From: an uncultured Gammaproteobacteria bacterium
Lineage (GTDB): Bacteria; Patescibacteriota; Patescibacteriia; Magasanikbacterales; GWA2-37-8
Assembly: GCA_964496095.1 (NCBI GenBank)
Contig: CAZBWU010000003.1
Span: 65,901-129,900 of the forward strand
Length of the DNA: 64,000 bases
Direction: 5' to 3'
Of the stretch, positions 403 to 54,710 are shown piece by piece (the stretch's first letter is position 1; every line of letters starts with the position of its first letter). The position numbers were made by a program, and so were the translations under genes. Under the pieces are notes generated by a model, which ran no database searches, had not been told where the DNA came from, and worked only from the letters and a program-made list of their open reading frames with translations.

Positions 403-1032
403 TTACCCACCAAACAAATTATGCTTACGATAACGAAGAACCCATAAACTAGAAATCAAAACACCCACCAAAAATCCAATACCGGCGTTAGCAAAAAAGT
501 TTGGGCGGTCAGGCCAGCGAGAGATAAGAGGGTCACTTACGGACTTAATAGCCACATCACCACCAAGGTATTCCCATCCTTGAGTTACCATAGTTTGCGT
601 GATGGCGTTTGACAAAGCCATAGCTTCATCTTGAGTATAACTATAGACTTTAATATTCATAATACTAACGCCATAGGACATATTTGCCTGTACATCCTTT
701 GTCCATTTCTTGCGCTGTTTTATGTCTTCTAAATTTTTCCAAGGTTCTCTGTCAAAAGAATAGGTAGTATTATTCATCACTTTGTTAAAAAAATCTGTAG
801 TATTGATAAGTTCTGTGAGATTGGCGCCAACTTTTTCGGCAGATCTGGCTTGGGTATAAGGATCTACCCCACTTTTATCTCGTGAAATAATTAAGACTTG
901 AGTAGTGGCGCTATATTGTTTTGGGAAAAACAAACTAGCAAAAATTGAACTGGTTAAAAAAACTAAACCCCAAACAATAATTAGAGCGCTGTGTTTTTTT
1001 AAGATATTGAACATATTTATTCTAATTGTCAT
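403..1032 (-). CDS. polysaccharide chain-length determinant, Wzz/CapA-like
   Basis: N-terminal TM, then ...KQYSATTQVLIISRDKSGVDPYTQARSAEKVGANLTELINT..., then a C-terminal TM (GIGFLVGVLISSLWVL). This is the two-TM topology and N-terminal motif of Wzz-family modulators. Confidence 0.5.
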   Translation of the reverse strand: MTIRINMFNILKKHSALIIVWGLVFLTSSIFASLFFPKQYSATTQVLIISRDKSGVDPYTQARSAEKVGANLTELINTTDFFNKVMNNTTYSFDREPWKNLEDIKQRKKWTKDVQANMSYGVSIMNIKVYSYTQDEAMALSNAITQTMVTQGWEYLGGDVAIKSVSDPLISRWPDRPNFFANAGIGFLVGVLISSLWVLRYRKHNLFGG

Positions 1033-3101: not shown

Positions 3102-3260
3102 AAGTGTTTAATCTTAAAGAATTGTACTCGTTTTTTTAAGGAAAAGCAAACATCAAACATCTCAATATTAACGGCTTAATATAATACGAAAGGCCTAATT
3201 TGTCAATCATAACTATTTCTGCTAATATTGAACAATTATAAACGTAATCAATTATACAAT

Positions 3261-3373
3261 TGTCATTCGAGCAAAGTGTAGAATCTCTGCCCATACAACC
3301 GCCATTCGCTCGACTTGACCGAAGACAACAACGAAAAACCGGACAGAGATCCTTCATTTCATTCAGGATGACA
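3261..3373. repeat. MITE-like palindromic element, family A
   Basis: tgtcattcgagcaaagtgtagaatctctgcc...ggacagagatccttc...caggatgacaa. It lies directly upstream of smpB and explains the spurious N-terminal extension of ORF 3260..3823. Confidence 0.7.
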
Positions 3374-3381
3374 AACAATAC

Positions 3382-3823
3382 TATGCCCCTTGCCCAAAAC
3401 AAAAAAGCCGAGTTTGAATATGAAATCCTAGAGAAATACGAGGCTGGTTTGGTATTATCAGGACAAGAGGTAAAATCCGCTAAACTTGGACAAATAAACT
3501 TAAAAGGCTCATACATAACTTTCCACGGTACCAATGCTTCCGTGTTAAATATGCATATTAATAAATACAAAGCTGTGGGTCCCCTACCTGACTATGACCC
3601 GACCCAATCCCGCCGAGTTCTTCTCCATAAAAAACAAATCGCCTATTTAAGGGCAAAATCTATGGAAAAGGGCTTGACAATTGTGCCTTTGCGAGTGTAT
3701 ACTAAGGGACGACTTCTAAAAATAGAAGTGGCTGTAGCTAGAGGAAAAAAACTTTACGACAAAAGAGAAACTCTAAAACAAAGAGATTCTAAAAGAGAAA
3801 TGGCTAGAGAAAGAAAGAATTAA
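3382..3823 (+). CDS. smpB: SsrA-binding protein SmpB
   Basis: MPLAQNKKAEFEYEILEKYEAGLVLSGQEVKS...LLHKKQIAYLRAK...EVAVARGKKLYDKRE. Typical SmpB length and motifs, and it is followed immediately by a tmRNA. Confidence 0.85.
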
Positions 3824-3832
3824 ATTATTTTT

Positions 3833-3911
3833 TGTCATTCTGAACAAAGTGAAGAATCCCTGTCTAAATTACCGAACGGACAGAGATCCTTCGTTACACT
3901 CAGGATGACAA
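3833..3911. repeat. MITE-like palindromic element, family A
   Basis: tgtcattctgaacaaagtgaagaatccctgtc...gacagagatccttcgttacactcaggatgacaa, between smpB and ssrA. Confidence 0.75.
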
Positions 3912-3926
3912 ACGTTTTTTTACAAA

Positions 3927-4323
3927 GGGGGTGCCGGGCTTTCGATAGAAGCTGCTGGCTACACTCGCATACCGAGGAAGCTCTGATCCTCGTTAATCAC
4001 AAAGGGCAACATAATAAGTGCAAACTTGTTATCAAAAGCTAAAGTTGCTTTCAGTAAAATGTTTACTGTCAACGCTTTCGCTCCGGTAATGGCTTAATAC
4101 CCATTTACCCATCACGCCGGCAACACCTAGTAGCCGAATCGTGGTGTCATTCACTAGGCGTAGTCATATAGGAGCGCCGGCTGTTATATGGCGAAGTTAC
4201 TCGGCTCGTCAATCCAATTTTCGTCCTCTTCTATTGGATTGATTAAAGAACAAGAGACACTAAGTATGTAGACGGTTTAGTCAAAGTTATCTAGACGCGA
4301 GTTCAACTCTCGCCACCTCCACA
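3927..4323 (+). ncRNA. ssrA: tmRNA (ssrA)
   Basis: Begins GGGGTGCCGGGCTTTCGATAG and ends with a tRNA-like T-arm and acceptor GACGCGAGTTCAACTCTCGCCACCTCCACA. An internal tag frame ends ...NAFAPVMA-TAA. Position directly downstream of smpB. Confidence 0.75.
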
Positions 4324-4429
4324 GAGAAATCCGGATTTACGGATAACTCAGATATACAGATGATAACGTCTGGACAAACGGTTCAAATCCGTAAATCTGG
4401 ATTATCTGCATATCCGGATAAATCTTAAT

Positions 4430-22429: not shown

Positions 22430-23578
22430 TTATAACATATCTCTCATCGCCAACCCGACTGCCACTGACATTCTTGGTCCAATTTGGCGAAGTACAGGCT
22501 TGAGACCATCCTGATAAACAACTCTAGCCCAAGCATCGCCAACATAACATTTAATTCTAAATTTACTTTCAATATATTTTGTCAAAAACGGCATCAGCGC
22601 CATTCCGCCGGTCAAAATAATTTTTTCTGGACGCTTGCCTTCGTTGCCAGACTGACGTAAATAAACTTCCAAACTTATTTCTATTTCTTTAAGTATAGGA
22701 TCTATTACTGGCATAAAAATGTCAAGCCACTTTTGCTCACTCAAAATATTATTTCCATTTGTTGGGAGAAAATCAAACAAATCATGCTTTACCTGTTCTA
22801 GCAATTCGATATCCAGTCCCAAAATATTTTGCATTATCTTGTCTATCTTGTCTCCGCCCGCATCTATACTATGATGAGTTATTGGCACTCCTTGATCAAT
22901 GATAAAAAAACTAGTCCTCTCTGCTCCCACATCTATTATCATAGACACAGACTGGTCTCGGCCAATCAAACAACGAGTCAAGGCGGTTGATTCTGGCTCT
23001 AAGGCTTCCAGAGTCAAACCGGCTCTACCAAAAACCTTAGAATAAAAATCGATCAGTTTGTGAGAAACAGCGTTGACCAGCACCCGCTGATTTTTTTCAG
23101 CTGGATTGGTATTTTTTAACACTTGAAAATCCAAAGCCACCTCTTCTAGCGGAATAGGTAATAATTTTTTGACTTCGGCTTTGACAGCGTGATCAAGTTC
23201 TTCTTTTTTGAGAGGAGGTAAAGTGACAACTGCGTGAAATACAGAAGATACAGGCAAACTGACCATGGCGGTCTTAGAAACTACTCGAGCTGTTTTACAT
23301 AGTACCTTTATTGTATCAGCGTATTTGATTATCTGCGCCTCGTTATCCATTTGATCTGAAGCAGCATTGATAGTGGCGGGCTTGTTTTCTTTATTGAGAA
23401 GCCTTGCTATATTTTTATCTTCGTTGGATTGAAATTTGTGAATATCTTGTTTGTCGGAAGTAAAACTATAGGTAAACAAAACTGGTCTTTTCTTTTCTAG
23501 ACGTAATTCTACTAATTTTATTCCACCAGCACCAACATCAATTCCTAAATATGATTTTGGTTTAAAAAAACCGAACAT
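22430..23578 (-). CDS. pilM: type IV pilus assembly protein PilM (actin-like ATPase)
   Basis: MFGFFKPKSYLGIDVGAGGIKLVELR... is the PilM N-terminus. The first 9 codons of the longer ORF overlap a MITE and are excluded. Confidence 0.75.
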   Translation of the reverse strand: MFGFFKPKSYLGIDVGAGGIKLVELRLEKKRPVLFTYSFTSDKQDIHKFQSNEDKNIARLLNKENKPATINAASDQMDNEAQIIKYADTIKVLCKTARVVSKTAMVSLPVSSVFHAVVTLPPLKKEELDHAVKAEVKKLLPIPLEEVALDFQVLKNTNPAEKNQRVLVNAVSHKLIDFYSKVFGRAGLTLEALEPESTALTRCLIGRDQSVSMIIDVGAERTSFFIIDQGVPITHHSIDAGGDKIDKIMQNILGLDIELLEQVKHDLFDFLPTNGNNILSEQKWLDIFMPVIDPILKEIEISLEVYLRQSGNEGKRPEKIILTGGMALMPFLTKYIESKFRIKCYVGDAWARVVYQDGLKPVLRQIGPRMSVAVGLAMRDML

Positions 23579-23599
23579 AAGACAAAGTTTAACTTTGGC

Positions 23600-23670
23600 T
23601 GTCATCCTGAATGCAACGAAGGATCCCTTCCACGGTTTAAGGATTCTTCGGCGTTGCCTCAGAACGACAA
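23600..23670. repeat. MITE-like palindromic element, family A
   Basis: tgtcatcctgaatgcaacgaaggatcccttcc...ggattcttcggcgttgcctcagaacgacaa. Confidence 0.7.
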
Positions 23671-28293: not shown

Positions 28294-28448
28294 TGTCATC
28301 CTGAACGTAGTGAAGAATCTCTGTCGGCTGTTCGTTGTCATCCCCGACCTGATCGGGGATCCAGCGTACAATTAAATTGCCTGGATTCCCGCTGTTGCGG
28401 GAATGACAATTGTTTGGGCAGGGATTCTTCGCCTTGCTCAGAATGACA
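28294..28448. repeat. nested MITE cluster: family A element carrying a family B element inside
   Basis: Outer tgtcatcctgaacgtagtgaagaatctctgtc...gggattcttcgccttgctcagaatgaca. Inner ttgtcatccccgacctgatcggggatccag...ctggattcccgctgttgcgggaatgacaa. Confidence 0.7.
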
Positions 28449-31605: not shown

Positions 31606-33258
31606 ATGTCAACAATCTACCGTAAATACCGTCCTCAAGTTTTTGCCGATGTCACAGGTCAAGACCATATTATCAAAACTATTACCAACGAAATCGCAAC
31701 TAACAAAATCGCGCATGCTTATTTATTTTGTGGACCACGCGGTACGGGTAAAACTACCACTGCCCGCTTACTAGCCAAAGCGATAAATTGTGAAAATAAA
31801 AAAGATGGCGAATACGAACCTTGCAACATCTGCTCTTCTTGTGTTGAATCAACTGCGAGCCACAGTATAGATATTATTGAAATAGACGCAGCTTCCAATA
31901 CCGGCGTAGACAATGTCCGTGAAAATATTATTGAAAACGCTCAGTTCAAACCAACCAAATCAAAATACAAAGTCTTTATCATCGACGAAGTCCACATGCT
32001 TTCTACCGGTGCTTTCAACGCCCTGCTCAAGACCGTAGAAGAACCTCCAGTGCATGTTATATTTATCCTCGCTACTACCGAGACTCACAAATTACCAGCC
32101 ACCATTATTTCCCGTTGCCAACGTTTTAATTTCAAAAAAGTTGGCTACGATGACATGCTCAAACGCTTAGAAGAACTTTGCAAAAGTGAAAAAATAAAAG
32201 TTGATAAAAAAGTTTTGGAAAGAATAATCAACAAGAGCGACGGCTGTGTCCGTGATGCTGAAAGCCTGCTAGGACAAATTTTGAGTCTTGACTTAAAAAG
32301 TATTGGCCCGGAAGACGCCGAGATGATTCTCCCTACTTCAAATGTAGAATCTATTTTAGAGTTTATTAATCTTATCTTAGACAAAAACCCAGCGACCGCC
32401 ATTGAATTACTACAAAAATCGGTAGAAGACGGGATAAACCTTGAACAGTTTGCCTATGACACAGTTGAGGCTTTACGCCTAGCCATGATTGTCCAAACAA
32501 ACTTCCAAACCAAAAATCTCAATACCGATTATAGCGACAAAGATTTAGGGTCTATCAAAAAAATCGCAGAAAAAATCACTACTCCGAGACTAATCAAAAT
32601 GCTTGAATCTCTGATTATCCGCCACCGAGAAATCAAATCATCTCCCCTACCTCAATTACCTTTGGAATTATTTGCCGTTGAATTTGGGATAGAGGAAGAA
32701 ATAGCTACAACTAATCGTTCGTCCGGTGCAACATCTGTCATTCCGACCCCCGCAAGCGGGATAAATTCCACAGAGGAATCCCTTAAACCAAAGGATAAGG
32801 GATCTTTCGACTCGGCAAAAGCCTCACTCAAGATGACAGAAACGACAACTATAGTTGAAAAAGAAGAACCAAAAACACCGAATCCAATCACCCAAGCAAT
32901 CAAAGATACTATCACCCATATTGCAAGTGGAGACATAAAAACAACCTTTGATGAAATCAAAAATAAATGGAATAGTATCATTGAAGAAATAAGCAAAAAA
33001 AATCATTCCCTCAGCTTCATTCTCAAAATGAGCCAGCTACAACATGTTCAAGATGGACGTCTGTACATCACTGTTCCTTACTCTTTTCATAAAGATAAAA
33101 TCAACGAAATCAATACTAAAAAAACCATTGAACAAGCAATAACAAATTTCTTCTCAGAACATATTCCTCTGGTTTGCGATGTGATCGCAGCGCCAGCTAT
33201 CGAAGAGGATTCTGAATTAAACAAATTAGCCGCCGATTTTGGCGGAGAGGTTGTGTAA
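31606..33258 (+). CDS. dnaX: DNA polymerase III subunit gamma/tau
   Basis: ...YRPQVFADVTGQDHI...AYLFCGPRGTGKTTTARLLAKAINC... (clamp-loader AAA+ with C-x-x-C Zn module) and ...FIIDEVHMLS...SRCQRFNF.... Carries a MITE in-frame at 32736..32837. Confidence 0.85.
   Translation: MSTIYRKYRPQVFADVTGQDHIIKTITNEIATNKIAHAYLFCGPRGTGKTTTARLLAKAINCENKKDGEYEPCNICSSCVESTASHSIDIIEIDAASNTGVDNVRENIIENAQFKPTKSKYKVFIIDEVHMLSTGAFNALLKTVEEPPVHVIFILATTETHKLPATIISRCQRFNFKKVGYDDMLKRLEELCKSEKIKVDKKVLERIINKSDGCVRDAESLLGQILSLDLKSIGPEDAEMILPTSNVESILEFINLILDKNPATAIELLQKSVEDGINLEQFAYDTVEALRLAMIVQTNFQTKNLNTDYSDKDLGSIKKIAEKITTPRLIKMLESLIIRHREIKSSPLPQLPLELFAVEFGIEEEIATTNRSSGATSVIPTPASGINSTEESLKPKDKGSFDSAKASLKMTETTTIVEKEEPKTPNPITQAIKDTITHIASGDIKTTFDEIKNKWNSIIEEISKKNHSLSFILKMSQLQHVQDGRLYITVPYSFHKDKINEINTKKTIEQAITNFFSEHIPLVCDVIAAPAIEEDSELNKLAADFGGEVV
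32736..32837. repeat. MITE-like family A element inserted in-frame within dnaX
   Basis: tgtcattccgacccccgcaagcgggataaattccacagaggaatccctt...gggatctttcgactcggcaaaagcctcactcaagatgaca, 102 nt, encodes ...SVIPTPASGINSTEESLKPKDKGSFDSAKASLKMTE.... Confidence 0.65.
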
Positions 33259-34155: not shown

Positions 34156-34267
34156 TGTCATTCTGAACGAAGTGAAGAATCTCTGTCCGTACAATGTCAT
34201 TCCCGCCAAAGCGGGAATCCAGACAATTCGAACGTACCCTGGATTCCCAATCAAGTTGGGAATGACA
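34156..34267. repeat. MITE composite: family A half-element plus complete family B element, abutting tRNA-Gln
   Basis: tgtcattctgaacgaagtgaagaatctctgtccg then tgtcattcccgccaaagcgggaatccag...ctggattcccaatcaagttgggaatgacaa. Confidence 0.7.
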
Positions 34268-36041: not shown

Positions 36042-36153
36042 TGTCATCCTGAGCAAAGCCGTAGCGAAGTCGAAGGATCCCTTATACTAAGGGTTCTGCA
36101 AATACTATGTTTAAGGGATTCCTCCACTCGTCTCGAGACTCGGTCGGAATGAC
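36042..36153. repeat. MITE-like palindromic element, family A variant
   Basis: tgtcatcctgagcaaagccgtagcgaagtcgaaggatccctt...aagggattcctcc...cggaatgaca. Confidence 0.65.
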
Positions 36154-36209
36154 ATTACAAAACAAAGCTTACCTTGCAAAAACTCTTTAAAAATGATAAT
36201 ATCTCCGAT

Positions 36210-43174: not shown

Positions 43175-44929
43175 TTATTGAATATTATTTACTTCTTTTT
43201 TAGAATAACCCAAAAATAAAACATTGCCTTCTTCTTTTTTTACTAACAATAGAACGGCGCGTAAGATCGTACGAGTTAAAACAATAGCCGAGAACATACT
43301 GACCAAGACACCAATAGCTAAAACAACCGCAAAACCTTTCACAAATCCGCCCATCCAAACCATAAAGATACAACTAATTAAAGTAGTTATATTACTATCA
43401 CGAATAGAAGGCCAGGCTCTAACAAAAGCTTCTTCCATAGCAGACTTTAGACTTCTTCCTAATCTCAACTCTTCTTTAAGACGCTCAAATATCAAAACAT
43501 TAGCATCAACCGCCATACCGATAGAGAGGATAAAACCGGCAATACCAGACAATGTCAAAGTTACGCCCAAAGTCTTGAATAAGACCAGGTTGATAAGGGC
43601 ATAAATACTTAAAGAAATAGCGGCGATAAAACCAGGCAATCTATAATAAATAATCATGTAAATTAGCACAGCAATCAAACCATAAATACCAGCTTTAAAA
43701 CTTTTTTGCAGTGAGTCAGCGCCCAAAGTCGCATCAACCTTCTGTTGACTGATAAGTTCTACTGGCACTGGTAAAGCTCCAGAATTGAGGCGTTGTGCCA
43801 AAAGTCTAGCTTCTTGCATAGAGAAACTACCGCTAATAACGGCACTACCGGTAAGAATCGCTTCATTTACTCTCGGAATACTAAGTGCTGAGCCATCCAA
43901 AAATATCGCAACAGGCTTGCCTACATTTCTTTTTGTTAATTCAGCAAAAAGCTGTGTGCCCTCTTCGTCAAATTGCAAAGCAACTTGTACTTGACCAGTT
44001 TGACTATCCTGACTAACCTCGGCTCTCTTTAGTTGTTTTCCAGACAAACCAGTGTTTTTCCATTGATCCGCTGGAGGCACGATATCGATTGGTTGTTTTG
44101 TTTTTATAAAAATTCTGGCAACATTATAGGTTTTGACAGTCGAAGAATTTTCATCTTTCTTTTCTTGAACAGACAATCTCTTGATAACATTTATACCGTC
44201 AAAACTCTTGATTAAATCTTTACTGACGTCTCCGTCTTTATGAGTACTAGCCCATTTATAAAATTCTGGAAAAACAGAATCGTCAATAAAACCAAGATCA
44301 CCCCCGGTAGATTTGGTTTTTTCATCTTCTGAATATTTCGTCACTGCGTCTTCAAAAGTCATTCCGCCTTTAATATCTTTTTGCGCGTCTTTGGCTTTGG
44401 TTTGCGCAGCAGTATTAAAAGTATCCATTTCTTTTTGCTCAGCAGGAGTGAGCGCTCGAAGTGGCTCGTCACTTTCTTCTTTAAATTCTAAAATTGGAGT
44501 TTCGCCGATCATTTTGATAGCTTGACTGACATCAGTCACACCAGGTAATTCTACAATTACTCTATAATCATTGTTTACTCTGGTAGTCTGGACGAGTGGC
44601 TCGGAAACTCCCAAACCTCCACGCACACGACGTTCTATTACGTCACGCACACCTTCCACAGCACTAGCCTTGTCGCTTCCAGGAATTACGTCTGTATTTG
44701 CTTGATAGACCAAATGAGCTCCGCCTTGCAAATCAAGACCGAGATTAAAGCCACTAGATGGCAAGTTTGGAATACCAACGTTTGCCTTTTTATTTGCCCA
44801 ATTTATACCACGGTTGGCATAGGTTGGAAAAACAACTAACAAACAAAAAACTGTCAAAGCGACAATGGAGAAAATACGCCATTTTAGAGAATCTTTGGAT
44901 ACGCCTCTGGATTTGGTTTTCACGGCCAT
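43175..44929 (-). CDS. secD: protein translocase subunit SecD
   Basis: N-terminal TM, large periplasmic domain (...LGLDLQGGAHLVYQA...), C-terminal 5-TM bundle. Confidence 0.85.
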   Translation of the reverse strand: MAVKTKSRGVSKDSLKWRIFSIVALTVFCLLVVFPTYANRGINWANKKANVGIPNLPSSGFNLGLDLQGGAHLVYQANTDVIPGSDKASAVEGVRDVIERRVRGGLGVSEPLVQTTRVNNDYRVIVELPGVTDVSQAIKMIGETPILEFKEESDEPLRALTPAEQKEMDTFNTAAQTKAKDAQKDIKGGMTFEDAVTKYSEDEKTKSTGGDLGFIDDSVFPEFYKWASTHKDGDVSKDLIKSFDGINVIKRLSVQEKKDENSSTVKTYNVARIFIKTKQPIDIVPPADQWKNTGLSGKQLKRAEVSQDSQTGQVQVALQFDEEGTQLFAELTKRNVGKPVAIFLDGSALSIPRVNEAILTGSAVISGSFSMQEARLLAQRLNSGALPVPVELISQQKVDATLGADSLQKSFKAGIYGLIAVLIYMIIYYRLPGFIAAISLSIYALINLVLFKTLGVTLTLSGIAGFILSIGMAVDANVLIFERLKEELRLGRSLKSAMEEAFVRAWPSIRDSNITTLISCIFMVWMGGFVKGFAVVLAIGVLVSMFSAIVLTRTILRAVLLLVKKEEGNVLFLGYSKKEVNNIQ

Positions 44930-45008
44930 AATATACGAGTTAGAATTTATCCCGCCGCAGCGGGACCCCGCCTAACGGCGGTGGGAATATAGAATTAAAC
45001 ACCTTAAC

Positions 45009-45096
45009 TGTCATCCCGAGCGAAGCCGCTCCTGCGGCTGACGAGGGATCTTTCCGTGTACGGACAGAGATTCCTTCTTCGTCGTCGGAATGACAA
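45009..45096. repeat. MITE-like palindromic element, family A
   Basis: tgtcatcccgagcgaagccgctcctgcggctgacgagggatc...cggacagagattccttcttcgtcgtcggaatgacaa. Preceded by a GC-rich palindrome (44951..44987). Confidence 0.7.
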
Positions 45097-47083: not shown

Positions 47084-47656
47084 TTATTGTTTTATTTTTC
47101 CTACTGTTATGCGTACCGTATTAGTTGGTAAGTTAACATCACTCATTATCGGATTTACTTGTACACCTTCACTAATTAAGGCATTATTTAAATCAATAAT
47201 AAATCCAGGAATTTTTGTACCATAATCCCCATATCCATAAATTTTAATACCGTTATATGCACCCACTAAATCTTCTCCTCCACTTAATTTCCATCTGGCT
47301 TCTTTAAATATTCTAGCTAATTTACCAGCAAATATAAAAATCTCCGGTGAATTTTCATGAATCATTTCAACATTAATATTTTCATATTTTGCTAACTTTT
47401 TTGAAATTTTTAAAATTTGCTCATTATTTAATTGCCAAACTTTGTTTTTATCCTCAATAATTGTTAGAGAGGCGTTCGGACTATTTTGAGCAATCAAGCT
47501 ATTGCTTATATTATTACTACTACCAATGGAAATTTTTGAGAAGTCAGAATTTTTTATAAATATAAGGCCATATATAGTAGCACCTAAACTAAAAATGATG
47601 ATGACAGGAGCGATAATTTTATGTTTTGTTAAATAATAAAGCAAGCTGTGTTTCAT
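47084..47656 (-). CDS. hypothetical membrane-anchored protein
   Basis: N-terminal TM. No motif recognised. Confidence 0.35.
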   Translation of the reverse strand: MKHSLLYYLTKHKIIAPVIIIFSLGATIYGLIFIKNSDFSKISIGSSNNISNSLIAQNSPNASLTIIEDKNKVWQLNNEQILKISKKLAKYENINVEMIHENSPEIFIFAGKLARIFKEARWKLSGGEDLVGAYNGIKIYGYGDYGTKIPGFIIDLNNALISEGVQVNPIMSDVNLPTNTVRITVGKIKQ

Positions 47657-47668
47657 AATAAAAAATCA

Positions 47669-50518
47669 TTAAGCCCCATGGCACTTCTTATACTTCTTTC
47701 CACTTCCACAAGGGCATAAATCATTTCTTCCAATTACTTTTCCATCTGCGTCTTTTTCTTTAGTCTTACTAACCACTTGTTCTTCAACTTCTGCGTCTGT
47801 AGTTTTACTTGCGCCCTTAAAACGCAAAGCATTGCTTCTATCCATTACCGATGGCGCCAACTGAATACCTAAGTTTACTTTATAGATGAGATAAACCACT
47901 TCTTTTTGAATCAAACTCAAAAGCTCATTAAACATTCTAAATGTTTCTTTCTTATACTCTACCAGTGGATCTTGTTGAGCATAACCGCGCAGGCCAATAC
48001 CAGTACGAAGATAATCAACTGCCACCAAGTGATCTACCCAAAGATTATCCATCGCACGAAGCAACACTTGTTTTTCAATTTCAAGTAGCATTTCCGGATT
48101 TGGAACAGCTTTAACCAAGAGAACTTCGTATTTTTCCTTTGCCAAACCAACCAAGTATTCAATAGTTTTGGTACGGATTTCCACATCATCCATTTTTTGC
48201 TCACGCTCCCCAGAAGCCAAGTCCGTAATAAATTTCTTTTCCTCATCTGACAAAGCAAAGATAGTAGAAACTGTTTCTAAGATTTCTTTAACATTCCATT
48301 CGCGACGACTTTCAGCATTGGTGTGAAAAGAAATAACTTGTTCGATCTCCTGCTCTACCATATCAAGAATCATTTGACGCAACGTCTTGGCGTCTGTCAT
48401 CTTGAGCGAAGATTTAGCTGAGTCGAGAGACGCCTTGTCCTCTGGTTTAAGGGATTCCTCCATTTCATCCGGAATGAGAAGTGAGTTATCCAGCGCTTTT
48501 TTTTCTCTATCAAACCCAAACAAAATTTCTCGACGCTTACCGTAAATAACTTCACGGTGACGATTAAGCACGTCATCATATTCCAACAAGTGTTTTCTTG
48601 AATCAAAATGCATGCCTTCTACTTTTTTCTGAGCAGACTCAATAATCCGGCTAATCATTTTTTGTTCGATTGGCATATCTTCCGGCACTTTGAGCGTCTC
48701 CATGACCGAGCGAATACGATCACCAGCAAAAATACGCATCAAATCATCTTGGGTAGAAAGATAAAATTGTGATTGACCAGGATCTCCCTGACGACCACTA
48801 CGACCACGAAGCTGGTTATCAATACGACGACTTTCGTGACGTTCAGTACCAATTACAAATAGACCTCCAGCATTGCGCACTTTTTCGGCCTCTTCTGGCA
48901 CAACCGGATTTCCTCCAAGCAAGATATCAACCCCGCGGCCAGCCATATTAGTAGCGAGCGTGACCGCACCGGCATGACCAGCCTGAGCGATAATCTCACC
49001 TTCTCGTTCGTGATTCTTGGCATTTAAAATTTCATGTTTTATTCCTTCTCTTTCCAAATACAAACTTAAGGCTTCGTTTTTATCTACGGCCACAGTACCG
49101 ATAAGCACTGGCTGGCCCTTGGTTTGCAATTCTTTAACAGTCTGGGCAATAGCTTTGTATTTTGCTTCTTCGGTCTTATAGATTCTGTCTGGATGATTGA
49201 TACGCTGATTGATTTTATTTGGTGGCACGACAACCACTTCTAATTTATAAATTTTGCCAAACTCTTCGGCTTCGGTCACCGCCGTTCCAGTCATACCGGA
49301 CAACTTTGGATATAATCTAAAATAATTCTGAAAAGTAACGGTGGCCATGGTCTGACTTTCTTGTTGGATATTTACGCCTTCTTGGGCTTCAATGGCTTGA
49401 TGCAAACCTTCACTATAACGTCGACCTGGCATCTTGCGACCAGTGAATTCATCAACGATTATTACCTCACCATTTTCAACTATATAATCCCGATCACGAG
49501 CAAATAACGCATGCGCGCGCAAAGCTTGCTCCACATGATGTACGGTTTTGATTCCACCTTCAGCATAAATATTATCTATACCCAACAATTTTTCCATTTT
49601 TGTAATGCCCGCTTCAGAAAGCGTGGCTGAACGCATTTTTTCATCAACATTATAATCTTCCTTTTCTACCAAAGTTCGCACCAAATCCGCAAACTTATAA
49701 TACATATCCGTTGCATCTTCAGCGGGAGCGGAAATAATCAGTGGGGTTCTCGCTTCATCAATCAGGATCGAATCTACTTCGTCAACAATCGCGTAGAAAA
49801 ATGGTCGTTGCGCCATCTCGGCGCTGTTTTGGACCATGTTATCGCGCAAATAATCAAAACCGAATTCATTGTTGGTACCATAGGTAATATCGCAAGCATA
49901 GGCATTTTTTCTAGAACATGATTCTAGATATTCTGTTTCAACTTTAAACATACCTTTAGCATCGCGCTCTTTGTCGGCCTCACTACCTTCGGATAAATTT
50001 TCACCTTGCAAAGTCTTTTGAGCATTATACTTAAAAGAAATTAATTGTTGCTGAATAATCCCCACAGTTAATCCCAAAGCGTCATAAATCTGACTCATCC
50101 AGACTGCATCACGTTTGGCCAAATAATCATTAACTGTCACCACATGCACGCCTTTACCCGCGAGTGCGTTGAGGTATGTTGGTAATGTTCCTACTAAAGT
50201 TTTCCCCTCACCAGTTCCCATTTCTACTATATTACCGCGATGAAGAGCAATACCACCAATAAGCTGAACATCAAAATGACGCATACCAGTGATGCGTTTT
50301 GAAGTTTCACGAATAACAGCATAGGCTTCAGGTAAAATATCGTCTAAAGTTTCGCCCTCGGTCAAACGTTTTTTGAATTCATCAGTTTTGGCACGCAAAT
50401 CTACCAAAGATAACTTTTGCATCTCTGATTCCAACGCATTTATTTCTTCTACAATCGGCTTGATACCTGCGACTACTTTGGCGTTTGGATCTCCAAAAAT
50501 TTTAGTGAGAAATGACAT
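47669..50518 (-). CDS. secA: preprotein translocase ATPase SecA
   Basis: MSFLTKIFGDPNAK... start, DEAD-like motor (...MGTGEGKTLV..., ...VDEVDSILIDEARTPLIIS...), C-terminal Zn finger CPCGSGKKYKKCHG. Carries a MITE in-frame at about 48395..48479. Confidence 0.9.
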   Translation of the reverse strand: MSFLTKIFGDPNAKVVAGIKPIVEEINALESEMQKLSLVDLRAKTDEFKKRLTEGETLDDILPEAYAVIRETSKRITGMRHFDVQLIGGIALHRGNIVEMGTGEGKTLVGTLPTYLNALAGKGVHVVTVNDYLAKRDAVWMSQIYDALGLTVGIIQQQLISFKYNAQKTLQGENLSEGSEADKERDAKGMFKVETEYLESCSRKNAYACDITYGTNNEFGFDYLRDNMVQNSAEMAQRPFFYAIVDEVDSILIDEARTPLIISAPAEDATDMYYKFADLVRTLVEKEDYNVDEKMRSATLSEAGITKMEKLLGIDNIYAEGGIKTVHHVEQALRAHALFARDRDYIVENGEVIIVDEFTGRKMPGRRYSEGLHQAIEAQEGVNIQQESQTMATVTFQNYFRLYPKLSGMTGTAVTEAEEFGKIYKLEVVVVPPNKINQRINHPDRIYKTEEAKYKAIAQTVKELQTKGQPVLIGTVAVDKNEALSLYLEREGIKHEILNAKNHEREGEIIAQAGHAGAVTLATNMAGRGVDILLGGNPVVPEEAEKVRNAGGLFVIGTERHESRRIDNQLRGRSGRQGDPGQSQFYLSTQDDLMRIFAGDRIRSVMETLKVPEDMPIEQKMISRIIESAQKKVEGMHFDSRKHLLEYDDVLNRHREVIYGKRREILFGFDREKKALDNSLLIPDEMEESLKPEDKASLDSAKSSLKMTDAKTLRQMILDMVEQEIEQVISFHTNAESRREWNVKEILETVSTIFALSDEEKKFITDLASGEREQKMDDVEIRTKTIEYLVGLAKEKYEVLLVKAVPNPEMLLEIEKQVLLRAMDNLWVDHLVAVDYLRTGIGLRGYAQQDPLVEYKKETFRMFNELLSLIQKEVVYLIYKVNLGIQLAPSVMDRSNALRFKGASKTTDAEVEEQVVSKTKEKDADGKVIGRNDLCPCGSGKKYKKCHGA
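48395..48479. repeat. MITE-like family A element inserted in-frame within secA
   Basis: Minus strand tctcattccggatgaaatggaggaatccctt...gtctctcgactcagctaaatcttcgctcaagatgaca. Encodes ...LLIPDEMEESLKPEDKASLDSAKSSLKMTD..., almost the same peptide as the dnaX insert. Confidence 0.6.
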
Positions 50519-50580: not shown

Positions 50581-50901
50581 TCAAGGATTTTGAGGAGTGT
50601 TCTGAGATAACAAAAGCGCACTTATTCTTTCCCCTTCTCGTTCCACCACTTCCCCATCATACTCACCTGAATGAGCCGTCACACCTTCATAAATTGGCCG
50701 TTTTTGATCCAAATGTAAATCAAAACTAACAAAGTCGCCTTCTTGTTTTATATAAACATGATACCTGGGATAAAAATCACGATGGATACGTTTGGCAAAA
50801 CTAGTTTTGCCCATGCGCCTGTCTATTATCTTGGCATAACCACAGCGCATGAGATTTTTTTCCGGATCACTAATTTGTTCTTTTTTGAATTTGATTATCA
50901 T
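50581..50901 (-). CDS. conserved hypothetical protein
   Basis: Start at MIIKFKKEQ.... Contains ...FYPRYHVYIKQEGDFVSFDLHLDQKRPIYEGVTAHSGEYDGEVVEREGER. No family assigned. Confidence 0.35.
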   Translation of the reverse strand: MIIKFKKEQISDPEKNLMRCGYAKIIDRRMGKTSFAKRIHRDFYPRYHVYIKQEGDFVSFDLHLDQKRPIYEGVTAHSGEYDGEVVEREGERISALLLSQNTPQNP

Positions 50902-52123: not shown

Positions 52124-52198
52124 TGTCATTCCCAACTTAATTGGGAATCCAGTGTCGAATTAAATTGTCTGGATTCCCGCTTTTGGCGGGAATGACAA
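52124..52198. repeat. MITE-like palindromic element, family B
   Basis: tgtcattcccaacttaattgggaatccagtgtcgaattaaattgtctggattcccgcttttggcgggaatgacaa. Confidence 0.7.
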
Positions 52199-52208
52199 TT
52201 GAATAAAT

Positions 52209-54710
52209 TTATTTTTTAATATTAATCTTTTTAGTAACACTGTGTCCACCAAACTGATTACGCAAAGCCGAGACTACCTTGCCGGTATAACTTGGATTTT
52301 TGGCAGAATGATAACGGAATAATAATGAATCAGCAATCACTTTTGCCGCCACCTTAAACTCTTTAGCAGTTTTGACAGTCCAAGCCCCTTCTCCCAAATG
52401 AGAAACCGTGCTAGAAATATCTTTCAAATCTTTCCCGTATTCTTCTAGCCCTTTTTTGAGCCAACCGATAAGACGGGACTCAACCACACTACCGTGATTA
52501 TAGATACTAGCAATTTTTATTAGATCAAGCTTAAACGGCGCTTTTTTCATAATTGCAAAACCTTCACCAATTGCTTGCATCATACCATACTCAATGCCAT
52601 TGTGGATCATTTTTACAAAATGCCCGGCTCCCAAACCATCAAAATGTTCGGTACCGCCAGCGGTTGCCCCATCGACAAACAATGGTAATAGTTCATTGTA
52701 TAATTTTCTATCCCCACCAACCATAAAACAAGCGCCATTGCGCGCCCCGCCCGGACCGCCCGAGAAGCCCACATCAGCAAACCTGATCCCCAATTTTGCC
52801 AATTTTTTTCCACGACGAATTGTATCTTTATAATATGAATTTCCTGCATCAAGAATAATATCGCCCTTCTGCAAAAAATCTACCAATCCGCCTTTATCAA
52901 AAATACTACGGTATTTTCTAGGCACGCTCGGAGATGAAAATAATTTTTCATCTCTCTCACTTTGCCCGAAAATTGTTTGATCAATCACTTCTCCGGACGG
53001 CAACATCAGCCAAACAATTTTTGGCTTACTTGATAGTTGAGAACAAAATTCCGGTAAAGAAAAGGATCCTACCATGCCGTGTTTAATCATCTCCTGAGTT
53101 TTTTCCGGAGACCTGTTATAACCAACCACTCGCCAACCTTTTTCGATAAGTTGCCAAGCAAAATTGTTTCCCATTTTTCCTAATCCAATAATGCCAATTT
53201 CTTTATTTAAAGGTTTTAAATTATCTACTGGCAAAACAAAATCGTTTTTAGCGCCTATCTTGTAAGTCAATAATTCTGTTTTATTTTTTTGCCAAGCTTG
53301 CATAATCGCTTCCACGAACCGCCACTCGGCGGTAATTTCTGCGGTGGAAATAAACAGGGTCTGATCACCTTTTACAATATCTAAAATCAACTGTTCATAG
53401 TCTGGAATAAAATCCTTCTTATCAATGTCGTTATAATTAAAATTAAAATCTACTTGGCTCAGCGTATGATTATGCCCTGGTTTTTTAGCCAAAAAACCTA
53501 CCTTAATATTTTCATCAGGCTTGATATTGTAGCGCAAAGTATTTTGATAGTGCCCGCCAGCAGGACAGAGCAAACACGGCGTCGGATGTTTAAATGTTAA
53601 TTTAATCTCACCACGACTCTCAGCCAGACCCTTACCGCCTTCTATATAGAGAGGCACGCCCGCAAAAGGTCCTGAATGCATTGTGGCCTTAACTTTAAAA
53701 TATGTCTCTGTATTTGAGTTTGGGTGTATCTTGTTCTGTGTGCGATAACCCTCGTACTGAGCGCGGAGAGTATTACTTTTTACTCCGTCAATGTCTAGCA
53801 CTTCCAAACGAGCCAAGCTCTCGGCGCGCTTTTTACGAATTTCGTCAGCCGTAAAACTATCGGGGTTGTCCATCGTAAACAAAGCTATAAGTTGTAATAA
53901 ATGATTCTGACCAACATCACGCAAAGCGCCTACCTTATCATAAAAATCCCCTCTTTCTTCTATATCTTCTGCTTCATTTAAAATAAACTCTATTTTTTCT
54001 ACATATTTATTATTCCAAGCCGGCGTCAAAAATAAATTACTAAAACGAAAAGCGATAATGTTTCGGACTGTTTCTTTTCCTAAATAATGATCTATGCGAT
54101 AAATCTGGTCTTCTCTAAATAGTTTACCCAATAACATATCCAGCTCTTGAGCGGATTTGAGATCAGAACCAAAAGGTTTTTCAATCACAATTCTATTCAC
54201 ACCATCTTTAGGATCACAAGGTTCGGCCAACCCTGAATTTTTCAATCCTAACAAAATAGTTTTGTAATTATTCGGAGGCACAGCCAAATAGAAAATTTTA
54301 TCTGAACAAAAACTCCAACCAGTATTAGTTTTTCCCAAAGCGTTGGCTAATTTTTTATAAGCGTTTTTATCTTCAAAATTTCCACTGATATAAAAAAAAC
54401 AATTTAGAAAATTTTCCAACTCTACTTCGCGAGTACCACGAGAAGCCCCGCTCTCAACCAAAATATTACGAATATAATCTCTTAAAGACTGATCAGTCAA
54501 ATCTCGTCTAGAAAAACCATAGATCTGCAATTTTTCCGGCAATAACTTTTTGGTATATAGGCTAAAAAATGATGGTAAAATCTTGGTCCTTACCAAATCG
54601 CCAGTAACACCAAATAGTACAAAAACACTAGGCACGGCAAAACGGGGTATATGATTAGACATAAAATAATTTAAGCTTTTATGAATTAAAACCTTAATTT
54701 TAAAAGCCAA
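52209..54710 (-). CDS. apparent fusion: glucose-6-phosphate 1-dehydrogenase (N) plus decarboxylating 6-phosphogluconate dehydrogenase (C)
   Basis: N-terminal ...FVLFGVTGDLVRTKILPSFF... (NADP-binding G-x-x-G-D-L-A), ...RIDHYLGKE.... C-terminal third ...IGIIGLGKMGNNFAWQL...DAGNS...GAGHFVKMIHNGIEYGMMQ... is the 6PGD fold. One uninterrupted frame. The start may be 54662 (MSNHIPRF). Confidence 0.7.
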   Translation of the reverse strand: MAFKIKVLIHKSLNYFMSNHIPRFAVPSVFVLFGVTGDLVRTKILPSFFSLYTKKLLPEKLQIYGFSRRDLTDQSLRDYIRNILVESGASRGTREVELENFLNCFFYISGNFEDKNAYKKLANALGKTNTGWSFCSDKIFYLAVPPNNYKTILLGLKNSGLAEPCDPKDGVNRIVIEKPFGSDLKSAQELDMLLGKLFREDQIYRIDHYLGKETVRNIIAFRFSNLFLTPAWNNKYVEKIEFILNEAEDIEERGDFYDKVGALRDVGQNHLLQLIALFTMDNPDSFTADEIRKKRAESLARLEVLDIDGVKSNTLRAQYEGYRTQNKIHPNSNTETYFKVKATMHSGPFAGVPLYIEGGKGLAESRGEIKLTFKHPTPCLLCPAGGHYQNTLRYNIKPDENIKVGFLAKKPGHNHTLSQVDFNFNYNDIDKKDFIPDYEQLILDIVKGDQTLFISTAEITAEWRFVEAIMQAWQKNKTELLTYKIGAKNDFVLPVDNLKPLNKEIGIIGLGKMGNNFAWQLIEKGWRVVGYNRSPEKTQEMIKHGMVGSFSLPEFCSQLSSKPKIVWLMLPSGEVIDQTIFGQSERDEKLFSSPSVPRKYRSIFDKGGLVDFLQKGDIILDAGNSYYKDTIRRGKKLAKLGIRFADVGFSGGPGGARNGACFMVGGDRKLYNELLPLFVDGATAGGTEHFDGLGAGHFVKMIHNGIEYGMMQAIGEGFAIMKKAPFKLDLIKIASIYNHGSVVESRLIGWLKKGLEEYGKDLKDISSTVSHLGEGAWTVKTAKEFKVAAKVIADSLLFRYHSAKNPSYTGKVVSALRNQFGGHSVTKKINIKK

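Follow-up and report, generated by a model that had tools for sequence, protein, structure and literature searches.

Why should secA, an essential gene, carry within its open reading frame (ORF) a palindromic repeat that otherwise lies mostly between genes? The question is raised by a 64,000-nucleotide stretch of DNA (hereafter the window, meaning the whole stretch analyzed) from contig CAZBWU010000003.1 of assembly GCA_964496095.1, which is deposited as an uncultured Gammaproteobacteria bacterium and is placed by GTDB in the Magasanikbacterales, within the Candidate Phyla Radiation (CPR, Patescibacteria). A preliminary description of this DNA had interpreted positions 48395–48479 as a miniature inverted-repeat transposable element (MITE) inserted in frame into secA and either exapted or at least tolerated there as a peptide module. 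The analysis reported here leads us to regard this segment as, very probably, a non-autonomous palindromic mobile repeat that inserted into a SecA loop and is tolerated as 28 extra residues without a detectable sequence-specific function. The gene and the copy inside it are as follows (L and P numbers denote loci and proteins of other genomes throughout).

47669 to 50518, minus strand: secA, 949 amino acids from the ATG at 50518 (Pfam, Protein Data Bank (PDB) matches, start of the orthologues).
48395 to 48479, minus strand: repeat copy inside secA, sub-family A1, decayed (nhmmer E 1.5e-4, blastn, copies in sister genomes).

The mechanically called secA ORF runs to a TTG at 50584 (971 aa), about 22 codons too far upstream; we place the true start at the ATG at 50518 because the orthologues begin with MSFLTK. 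The product contains all five SecA domains of Pfam (SecA_DEAD, SecA_PP_bind, P-loop_SecA, SecA_SW and SEC-C) and matches SecA entries of the PDB, including B. subtilis SecA, at E 1e-243. Re-reading of the sequence confirmed the 85 bases of the repeat as first given, and the secA frame runs unbroken through them (reading ...SLLIPDEMEESLKPEDKASLDSAKSSLKMTDA...), bases 48478 (CTC) to 48395 (ACA) encoding the 28 residues LIPDEMEESLKPEDKASLDSAKSSLKMT (residues 703–730 of the 971-aa ORF), with ALDNSLLIPDEMEESLKPEDK, ASLDSAK and MTDAK as predicted tryptic peptides. The claim of an in-frame insertion that does not break secA is borne out by this open frame and its 28 added residues, which, judging from the intact frame, would be translated as part of SecA. 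The second genic copy, in dnaX, is likewise 1 modulo 3 in length (85 nt in secA, 103 nt in dnaX), and both are read in one and the same frame, (T)GTC ATT CC. giving V-I-P at one end and ..G ATG ACA giving x-M-T at the other.

At the protein level, alignment to B. subtilis SecA leaves query residues 689–729 without a counterpart, both flanks meeting at residue 621. An AlphaFold2 model was built with 60 orthologues (mean predicted local distance difference test score, pLDDT, of 70) and aligned by Foldseek to solved SecA structures with template modelling (TM) scores of 0.74–0.83. In this model, pLDDT drops below 50 at residues 702–731, nearly exactly the insert and the sole such segment in the region, flanked by a long helix at 661–701 (pLDDT 82–90) and a helix at 735–754 (83–90); the wing-and-scaffold domain of Pfam is split at the same site. 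We take this site to be the junction of the SecA scaffold helix and the helical wing domain, the latter being a peripheral, mobile part of the protein. On the question whether the insert falls in a surface loop, raised in the preliminary description, the model is favorable in that it places the segment in a predicted low-confidence loop between two confident helices.

The segment belongs to a family of repeats dispersed through the window. The family ends, TGTCATYCYGA...TCRGRATGACA, are conserved in alignment and in predicted folds, and the end motif TGTCATYCYGA (with at most one mismatch) occurs 20 times in the window vs. 3.0 expected, a count that none of 100 shuffles reached. Twelve repeat loci were recognized, two in genes (secA and dnaX) and ten between genes, in line with the earlier count of about ten intergenic sites, which is refined here by the recognition of two sub-families, A (TGTCATYCTGA...GAATC...) and B (TGTCATTCCCGC...GCGGGAATGACA), and of nested and partial copies among them. 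The second host gene and the copies annotated outside secA are listed below, z being a comparison of predicted folding with shuffled sequences.

31606 to 33258, plus strand: dnaX, encoding DNA polymerase III gamma/tau (Pfam DNA_pol3_delta2 and DNA_pol3_gamma3).
32736 to 32838, plus strand: in-frame copy in dnaX, same sub-family as the secA copy (blastn, nhmmer E 3e-7).
36042 to 36154: intergenic copy upstream of folD, closest to the secA/dnaX sub-family, with a long predicted hairpin (z -3.0, nhmmer, blastn).
45009 to 45095: intergenic family-A copy upstream of secD, absent from sisters L003 and L004 (z -4.8, nhmmer).
3833 to 3910: intergenic family-A copy between smpB and the transfer-messenger RNA (tmRNA) gene (z -5.4, nhmmer).
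3261 to 3373: family-A copy directly 5' of smpB (nhmmer E 4e-10).
1027 to 1150: family-A copy (1027–1108) followed by a partial copy (1109–1150) (end motif, nhmmer).
23600 to 23669: intergenic family-A copy upstream of pilM, absent from sister L123 (fold, nhmmer).
28294 to 28448: family-A copy with a family-B element (28336–28408) nested in its central loop, absent from L123 (nhmmer).
34156 to 34267: composite of the left half of a family-A copy and a family-B element (34195–34267), beside a tRNA gene (nhmmer).
52124 to 52197: intergenic family-B copy (TGTCATTCCC...GGGAATGACA; z -6.5).

Family membership of the secA segment was assessed with an nhmmer profile made from intergenic copies only, the secA and dnaX copies being left out. 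This profile recovered the secA copy over practically its full length (48395–48477, model positions 1–79 of 81, E 1.5e-4) as well as the dnaX copy (E 3e-7), the first match beyond the repeat copies appearing only at E 4.2; both the membership of the segment and the significance of its nucleotide similarity to the intergenic copies are upheld by this result. A blastn comparison of the secA segment with the window gave the dnaX copy as a match (32773–32840, 85% identity over 68 nt, E 1e-10 to 3e-15), on the opposite strand and hence in equal orientation relative to the coding strand, along with two copies between genes, at 36042 (E 1.7e-4) and 45009 (E 0.009). The copies are 70–155 bp long and have no coding capacity of their own, most of the intergenic ones containing stops in most frames, and long hairpins are predicted for the intergenic copies (z -2.5 to -6.5 vs. 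shuffles). A short inverted repeat can be made out by eye in each arm (e.g., ATTCCCGC-CAAA-GCGGGAAT of family B), and the two arms pair in the folds; the predicted structures show mostly an arm-to-arm hairpin, and the units are not similar in sequence to repetitive extragenic palindromes (REPs). Small size (< ~300 bp), terminal inverted repeats (TIRs) and dispersed copies that are polymorphic between genomes are features shared with MITEs, and no Rfam family matches the repeats in the window.

When did the secA copy arrive? The comparison set comprised the 120 best SecA homologues, of which all are of CPR type and many bear the label Candidatus Magasanikbacteria. Two more proteins fall into the 90%-identity cluster of the window SecA, P0241 (97.5%) and P0242 (96.5%), both with the insert at the same codon, whereas orthologues P0003–P0015 (81–84% identity, 917–933 aa) are devoid of it, and the empty site is seen at the DNA level in L002; the segment is therefore absent from close orthologues and is not conserved native SecA sequence. 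The sister-genome copies of secA encode VIPTEMEESLKPEDKGSFDSAEASLKMT, and that of L004 retains perfect TGTCAT...ATGACA ends. As the three insert-bearing genomes share the site while the 81–84% relatives are without the insert, the insertion dates to the shared ancestor of three Candidatus Magasanikbacteria genomes that are close relatives (synonymous divergence, dS, 0.27–0.38) and postdates the split from lineages whose SecA is 84–92% identical. In L001, whose SecA is 92% identical, a distinct and pristine palindrome (TGTCATTGCGAG...CTCGCAATGACA, z -8.8) lies at a distance of a few codons. As to taxonomy, the label "uncultured Gammaproteobacteria bacterium" looks wrong for L004, L018, L019 and other CAYIJG and CAZETA contigs; SecA of these assemblies is 96.5% and 84% identical to that of the window (the latter value being 87% over aligned columns), with a similar local gene order.

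Outside the insert, secA shows a nonsynonymous divergence (dN) of 0.010–0.015 at dS 0.27–0.38 (dN/dS ~0.03–0.04), as compared with dN 0.047–0.115, dS 0.12–0.26 and dN/dS ~0.4–0.8 for the 28 insert codons, so that dN of the insert is 5–8 times that of the remaining gene. Nonsynonymous changes per site are correspondingly enriched in the insert (odds ratio 4.6–8.5, p 0.036 to 1e-4). The hairpin is fading as well: the DNA-fold z of the insert is -1.85 in L004, -0.66 in L003 and +0.27 in the window, the window copy as RNA folds worse than 196 of 200 shuffles, and one of its terminal repeats has decayed (GAATGAGA on the plus strand, TCTCAT in the coding sense). The window lineage has accumulated 7 private changes in the 85-nt element vs. 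3.2% in the rest of the gene (p 0.023). An acceleration specific to this lineage was considered and dropped, the 7:1 asymmetry between the window and L003 being not significant (p 0.15). The decayed terminal repeat and the lost hairpin correct the preliminary description on this point, and the window copy would be an immobile fossil.

Judging from the sequences, several related repeat families have inserted time and again at the same places, namely two loops of SecA and the linker of DnaX. In 24 of the 120 SecA orthologues the scaffold/wing loop is longer by 12 residues or more, and at least two hallmark peptides were found in 11 of these 24 vs. none of the 96 without such an expansion. Another loop, around residue 192, is expanded in 10 of the 120, likewise with peptides derived from repeats; it spans residues ~186–205 of the 971-aa ORF (window ~49970–50030) and belongs to a clade-specific insert of the first motor domain. 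Peptides in the SecA loops derive from several families (VIPSERSDEESL.., VILSEAKD..QNDN, VIPAESGNP..WIPNQVGNDN, SLRASEGSEAI..PRNDN and ..EISRSPLEMT), many beginning with VIP.. or VIL.. and ending in ...MT or ..NDN. Intact palindromes were present at the DNA level in both of the expanded orthologues examined, the SecA of L121 has a family-B element in both loops, and a similar variety of repeat families occupies the DnaX linker of orthologues. Overall, the raised dN, the progressive decay of the hairpin and the unrelated repeat families in the same loop elsewhere favor the interpretation of the insert as tolerated selfish DNA rather than an exapted module, and the substitution pattern suggests that it evolves almost neutrally. 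Of the two possibilities left side by side in the preliminary description, it is the tolerated peptide that agrees with the dN/dS values, the hairpin decay and the different families in the loop.

The phenomenon extends to other genes and other CPR genomes. When a single genome of each species was scanned with a sub-family pattern requiring an intact inner stem, at least 116 stretches matched, and nearly all of the informatively labelled ones come from CPR lineages (among the matches listed: Magasanik-, Gracili-, Peri-, Doudna-, Berkel-, Buchanan-, Jackson-, Uhr- and Saccharibacteria, and Moraniibacteriota). Among the matches listed, 19 of 120 lie inside long open frames that continue for 50 codons or more to either side, a genic fraction (16%) that is only indicative given the demand for an intact inner stem. 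Eight of these 19 were analyzed with Pfam, and all eight proved to be real housekeeping genes with domain matches reaching or flanking the insert: PrmC, QueA (from a sister genome of the window), TatD, LepA (L105, inside the GTPase domain just before the DTPGH motif), a pseudouridine synthase, Sua5/YrdC, a family-2 glycosyltransferase (GT2) and UvrD. Not every one of the 19 need be a gene: one or more (L069, on an Acidobacteriota contig of high GC content) would probably be a spurious ORF. A single 1147-aa UvrD/AddA-like helicase of L101 (contig CAZHNI010000001.1) contains at least four in-frame repeat-derived segments (SFRPEPQRGEVEKSL...ARNDN, VISTTKEKSL...ARNDN, VILNGAKRSEESL...SLRMT and VIPSVVEGSL...GRNDK).

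A peptide-profile search of representative proteins returned four matches, none of which was retained as a further host protein. P0244 is an unrelated repeat protein; P0243, P0245 and P0246, from other organisms, consist of tandemly repeated peptides (e.g., VIPTGARRAAAGGAEES...DPSASLGMT), clearly related in two of them; these ORFs are probably spurious and run across arrays of related palindromes in genomes rich in GC. Each frame of a random intergenic copy is open ~25% of the time, and copies have on average 1.51 stop-free frames of 6 vs. 1.16 in shuffles; with so weak an enrichment, we do not claim that the repeat is adapted for coding.

The mechanism that we propose would then run as follows. 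A MITE- or REP-like repeat of ~70–115 bp with TGTCAT...ATGACA ends would insert into the DNA encoding a variable SecA loop, the one that joins the long scaffold helix to the helical wing domain; because the inserted length keeps the frame and the frame read has no stop codon, SecA would be made with 28 extra hydrophilic residues. The insert would thereafter drift almost neutrally, losing its terminal repeat and hairpin in the window lineage. About one third of insertions would keep the frame and, by rough estimate, a small fraction of coding hits would leave an intact ORF, so that insertions would persist only where a protein tolerates ~30 hydrophilic residues. Since insertions survive only in such tolerant loops, SecA and DnaX would become hotspots occupied by different families in different lineages. 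We think that survivorship explains these hotspots, target preference being the alternative.

Movement of the family is suggested by the differences between genomes: sister genomes lack the copies that lie upstream of secD, pilM and corA, one copy is found only in a sister, gains and losses occur between genomes at dS 0.3–0.4, and copies nest in one another. The flanks show a symmetric T/C preference beside TGTCAT that extends the inverted repeat; empty and filled intergenic sites of the sister genomes are too diverged for exact boundaries to be drawn. The repeat pattern was not matched in viral contigs.

Several observations weigh against the proposed history. No target-site duplication was found at 11 window copies and 107 copies of other genomes, no transposase was detected by Pfam among 20 window ORFs, and no TIR-flanked, transposase-bearing element of 0.7–3 kb was found in ~1 Mb of related loci. 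One TIR-flanked candidate of 2.8 kb, in a Gracilibacteria genome (L084), was set aside as it has no transposase-like ORF. With neither a transposase nor an autonomous element of matching ends turning up in those window ORFs or loci, arrival by transposition is something that we infer, as is the translation of the insert. The dN/dS value of the insert rests on 5–11 substitutions. The hotspot pattern could partly reflect target preference, selection being the cause that we infer for it instead. Finally, the dnaX copy has no differences at all between the window and L123 over 103 nt in a gene that otherwise shows dS 0.42, which simple neutral drift does not predict.

The dnaX copy therefore deserves a closer look. 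It lies in the linker after domain III (residues 378–411, reading VIPTPASGINSTEESLKPKDKGSFDSAKASLKMT) and is common to DnaX orthologues P0122–P0124 (96%, 89% and 88% identity), the latter two (P0123 and P0124) having 28 residues there, VIPTEMEESLKPEDRGSFDSAKASLKIT, which resemble the secA copies even more closely. The initial claim that dnaX encodes almost the same peptide as secA is sustained, the copy being of the same sub-family, in frame, alike in orientation and shared by orthologues. The longest identical run in the gene (positions 1129–1241; window 32734–32846 vs. L123 11129–11241) nearly coincides with the element (1131–1233). Directly 5' of the element there is a hypervariable 32-nt patch, about half of whose positions differ; 3' of it the low divergence continues, positions 1247–1316 being identical and only two differences occurring in 1129–1316. 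The identity may reflect gene conversion, a recombination tract or constraint at the DNA level; given that conservation is unusually high 3' of the element, too, gene conversion or a recombination tract is just as probable as selection.

This bears on the first alternative, namely that the repeat peptide has gained a function in SecA and DnaX (e.g., that of a binding site or of a tuned linker) and is kept by selection. Nearly the same peptide in the same frame and orientation in two essential proteins, the strict identity of the dnaX copy, and the persistence of the secA insert through the divergence of three genomes would all fit. We nevertheless consider such exaptation unlikely: the 5- to 8-fold excess of dN with dN/dS at ~0.4–0.8, the absence of the insert from the 81–84% orthologues, the unrelated families filling the same loop in other lineages and the predicted low-confidence, possibly disordered state of the segment all speak for mere tolerance, and the conserved stretch of dnaX, running well past the 3' end of the element, could be a recombination tract.

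In a second alternative, the secA copy was acquired by ectopic recombination or gene conversion (for instance, from dnaX) or by recombination between strains rather than by transposition. The sister secA peptide is nearly identical to the dnaX peptide of P0123 and P0124, the dnaX copy bears signs of homogenization, and neither a target-site duplication in the flanks nor a transposase in the ~1 Mb of related loci was found. However, the sequences on either side of the secA and dnaX copies have no homology by which an exchange could be guided, intergenic copies come and go at many unrelated sites, and independent families have hit the same loop, which makes this origin quite improbable in comparison with insertion of a mobile repeat.

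Removal of the insert from mature SecA, either intron-like at the RNA level or intein-like at the protein level, would be a third possibility, and CPR genomes are known for insertions in their rRNA genes. In the window, Rfam assigns neither an intron nor any other RNA family to the repeat, Pfam finds only SecA domains and no intein/Hint domain in SecA, and 28 residues (84 nt) are far too few for an intein, well below the size of any that we know of. The frame is open and compatible in length in secA, dnaX and all eight Pfam-confirmed hosts, which counts against removal because none of this would be needed if the segment were spliced out. The window copy, moreover, no longer forms a stable structure, and we hold removal to be very improbable. 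In a weak test for RNA removal, namely the search for genes split out of frame by an element, the candidates proved intergenic or spurious. Least credible of all is a native variable loop that resembles the repeat by chance, or an assembly artefact: loop length does vary among orthologues, but the full-length profile match is free of false positives, the dnaX match reaches E 1e-10, a sister copy has intact terminal repeats, and an artefact is excluded because three independent assemblies from NCBI and ENA contain the insert.

Where, then, does a tolerated mobile repeat of this kind stand among known systems? The closest precedent, invoked already in the preliminary description, is that of Rickettsia palindromic elements (RPEs). 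RPEs are short palindromic repeats, a sizeable fraction of which lie in frame in unrelated housekeeping genes (Ogata et al., 2000, via PMC10969869 and PMC3733652), and they are taken to be selfish DNA that proteins tolerate at permissive sites on their surface (PMC10969869, PMC3733652). The elements studied here are alike in being palindromic repeats spread through a small genome that add a peptide in frame without destroying unrelated proteins. They differ from RPEs in occurring in CPR/Patescibacteria, in having TGTCAT...ATGACA ends and no CGTC tag (for the tag, see Di Nocera et al., 2013, PMC3733652), in length (70–115 bp vs. ~100–150 bp), in comprising several sub-families with nesting, and in that the same SecA and DnaX loops have been hit repeatedly by different sub-families. 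This comparison concerns behavior, ends, tag and length, and because the CGTC tag is absent, we regard the likeness as analogy and not homology; the precedent is apt in so far as it concerns in-frame insertion into housekeeping genes.

Intragenic REPs with GTAG or CGTC tags are also known from coding regions, often those of replication and repair genes (Di Nocera et al., 2013, PMC3733652), and the recurrent-site pattern seen here resembles the presence of different REPs at about the same recB site in two Xanthomonas species (PMC3733652). The window elements, however, are longer, two-armed palindromes without such tags. Neither CGTC nor GTAG is enriched beside the ends of 107 elements (the top flanking 4-mers are T-rich, and the ends themselves are TGTCAT), for which reason we do not place them with the tagged REPs and RPEs; no RAYT-type transposase (REP-associated tyrosine transposase) was found among the window ORFs scanned. 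With bacterial MITEs (Correia/NEMIS, ERIC, Nezha and those of Anabaena; PMC10969869) they share small size, lack of coding, TIRs, dispersal, presence/absence differences between strains and occasional in-frame fusions with ORFs, but they differ in that no target-site duplication (flanks tested) or parent insertion sequence (window ORFs and ~1 Mb of loci) was found. With one long hairpin and, by eye, a smaller hairpin per arm, a window element would be more like a REP doublet (REPIN) than a MITE. Palindromes in coding regions of Nematomorpha mitochondria (PMC6649704) appear similar as inverted repeats lying inside, and translated with, essential genes; that case is organellar and eukaryotic, with perfect repeats that do not form a dispersed family also present between genes (PMC6649704). 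Thus, the element is RPE-like in behavior, is not filed in the REP or RPE families, and lacks the target-site duplication that serves as a criterion of MITEs. In-frame palindromic repeats as such are already known from RPEs and intragenic REPs, and the CPR family is a new instance: full-text literature searches, whose coverage is incomplete, gave no description of such palindromic elements or peptides in CPR, in agreement with the initial impression that the family was undescribed there.

Other features of the window may be recorded briefly. Repeat copies 3261–3373 and 3833–3910 bracket smpB, with the tmRNA at 3927–4324; the SmpB domain begins at residue 45 of the ORF at 3260–3823. The called start codons of a Wzz-like ORF (403–1032) and of the PilM ORF (22430–23605) are the ATG of a terminal ATGACA (window 1027–1032 and 23600–23605, respectively). 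The Pfam match of the Wzz-like protein begins at residue 6, so that the repeat end may supply or abut its start codon; PilM of the sister genome is 9 aa shorter than that of the window. A further GC-rich palindromic stretch (CCCACCGCCGTTAGGCGGGGTCCCGCTGCGGCGGGAT) at ~44935–45008 lies between secD and the repeat at 45009–45095, and L004 has yet another, unrelated palindrome at that intergenic site. In SecD itself (43175–44929), a peptidyl-prolyl isomerase domain of PpiC type (Rotamase) separates the first periplasmic sub-domain from the P1 head, an architecture also seen in relatives L002–L004. Downstream of secA, gene content differs between the window (47084–47656) and L003 (6802–8788), with an unannotated 190-aa protein, a PNPOx-like gene and others in the former, and a Tsp45I-like restriction enzyme with an N6/N4 methyltransferase in the latter. 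A single 833-aa ORF (52209–54710; 786 aa in its sister version) joins glucose-6-phosphate dehydrogenase and 6-phosphogluconate dehydrogenase domains.

A wider interpretation is offered tentatively, and with less than even confidence: TGTCAT palindromes may be phylum-wide, protein-readable selfish DNA of CPR/Patescibacteria and a main source of their lineage-specific insertions and linkers, with the loop hits (two loops in SecA, one in DnaX and several in one UvrD-like helicase) reflecting target preference or a benefit of the linker. If true, this would be a counterpart of RPEs on a far larger phylogenetic scale. Apart from this wider view, the finding indicates that streamlined CPR genomes carry active palindromic selfish DNA that has been written repeatedly into essential proteins such as SecA, DnaX, LepA, QueA and UvrD. 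For genome annotation, peptides of the forms VIPxE...LxMT, VILSEAKD...QDD and SLR...RNDN account for many odd insertions in proteins of CPR and many spurious small ORFs, and for protein science, the hotspots amount to a natural map of permissive sites in SecA and a clamp-loader subunit. For the study of evolution, they provide a second, independent and much broader system than Rickettsia in which to ask whether such insertions are merely tolerated or have sometimes become useful.

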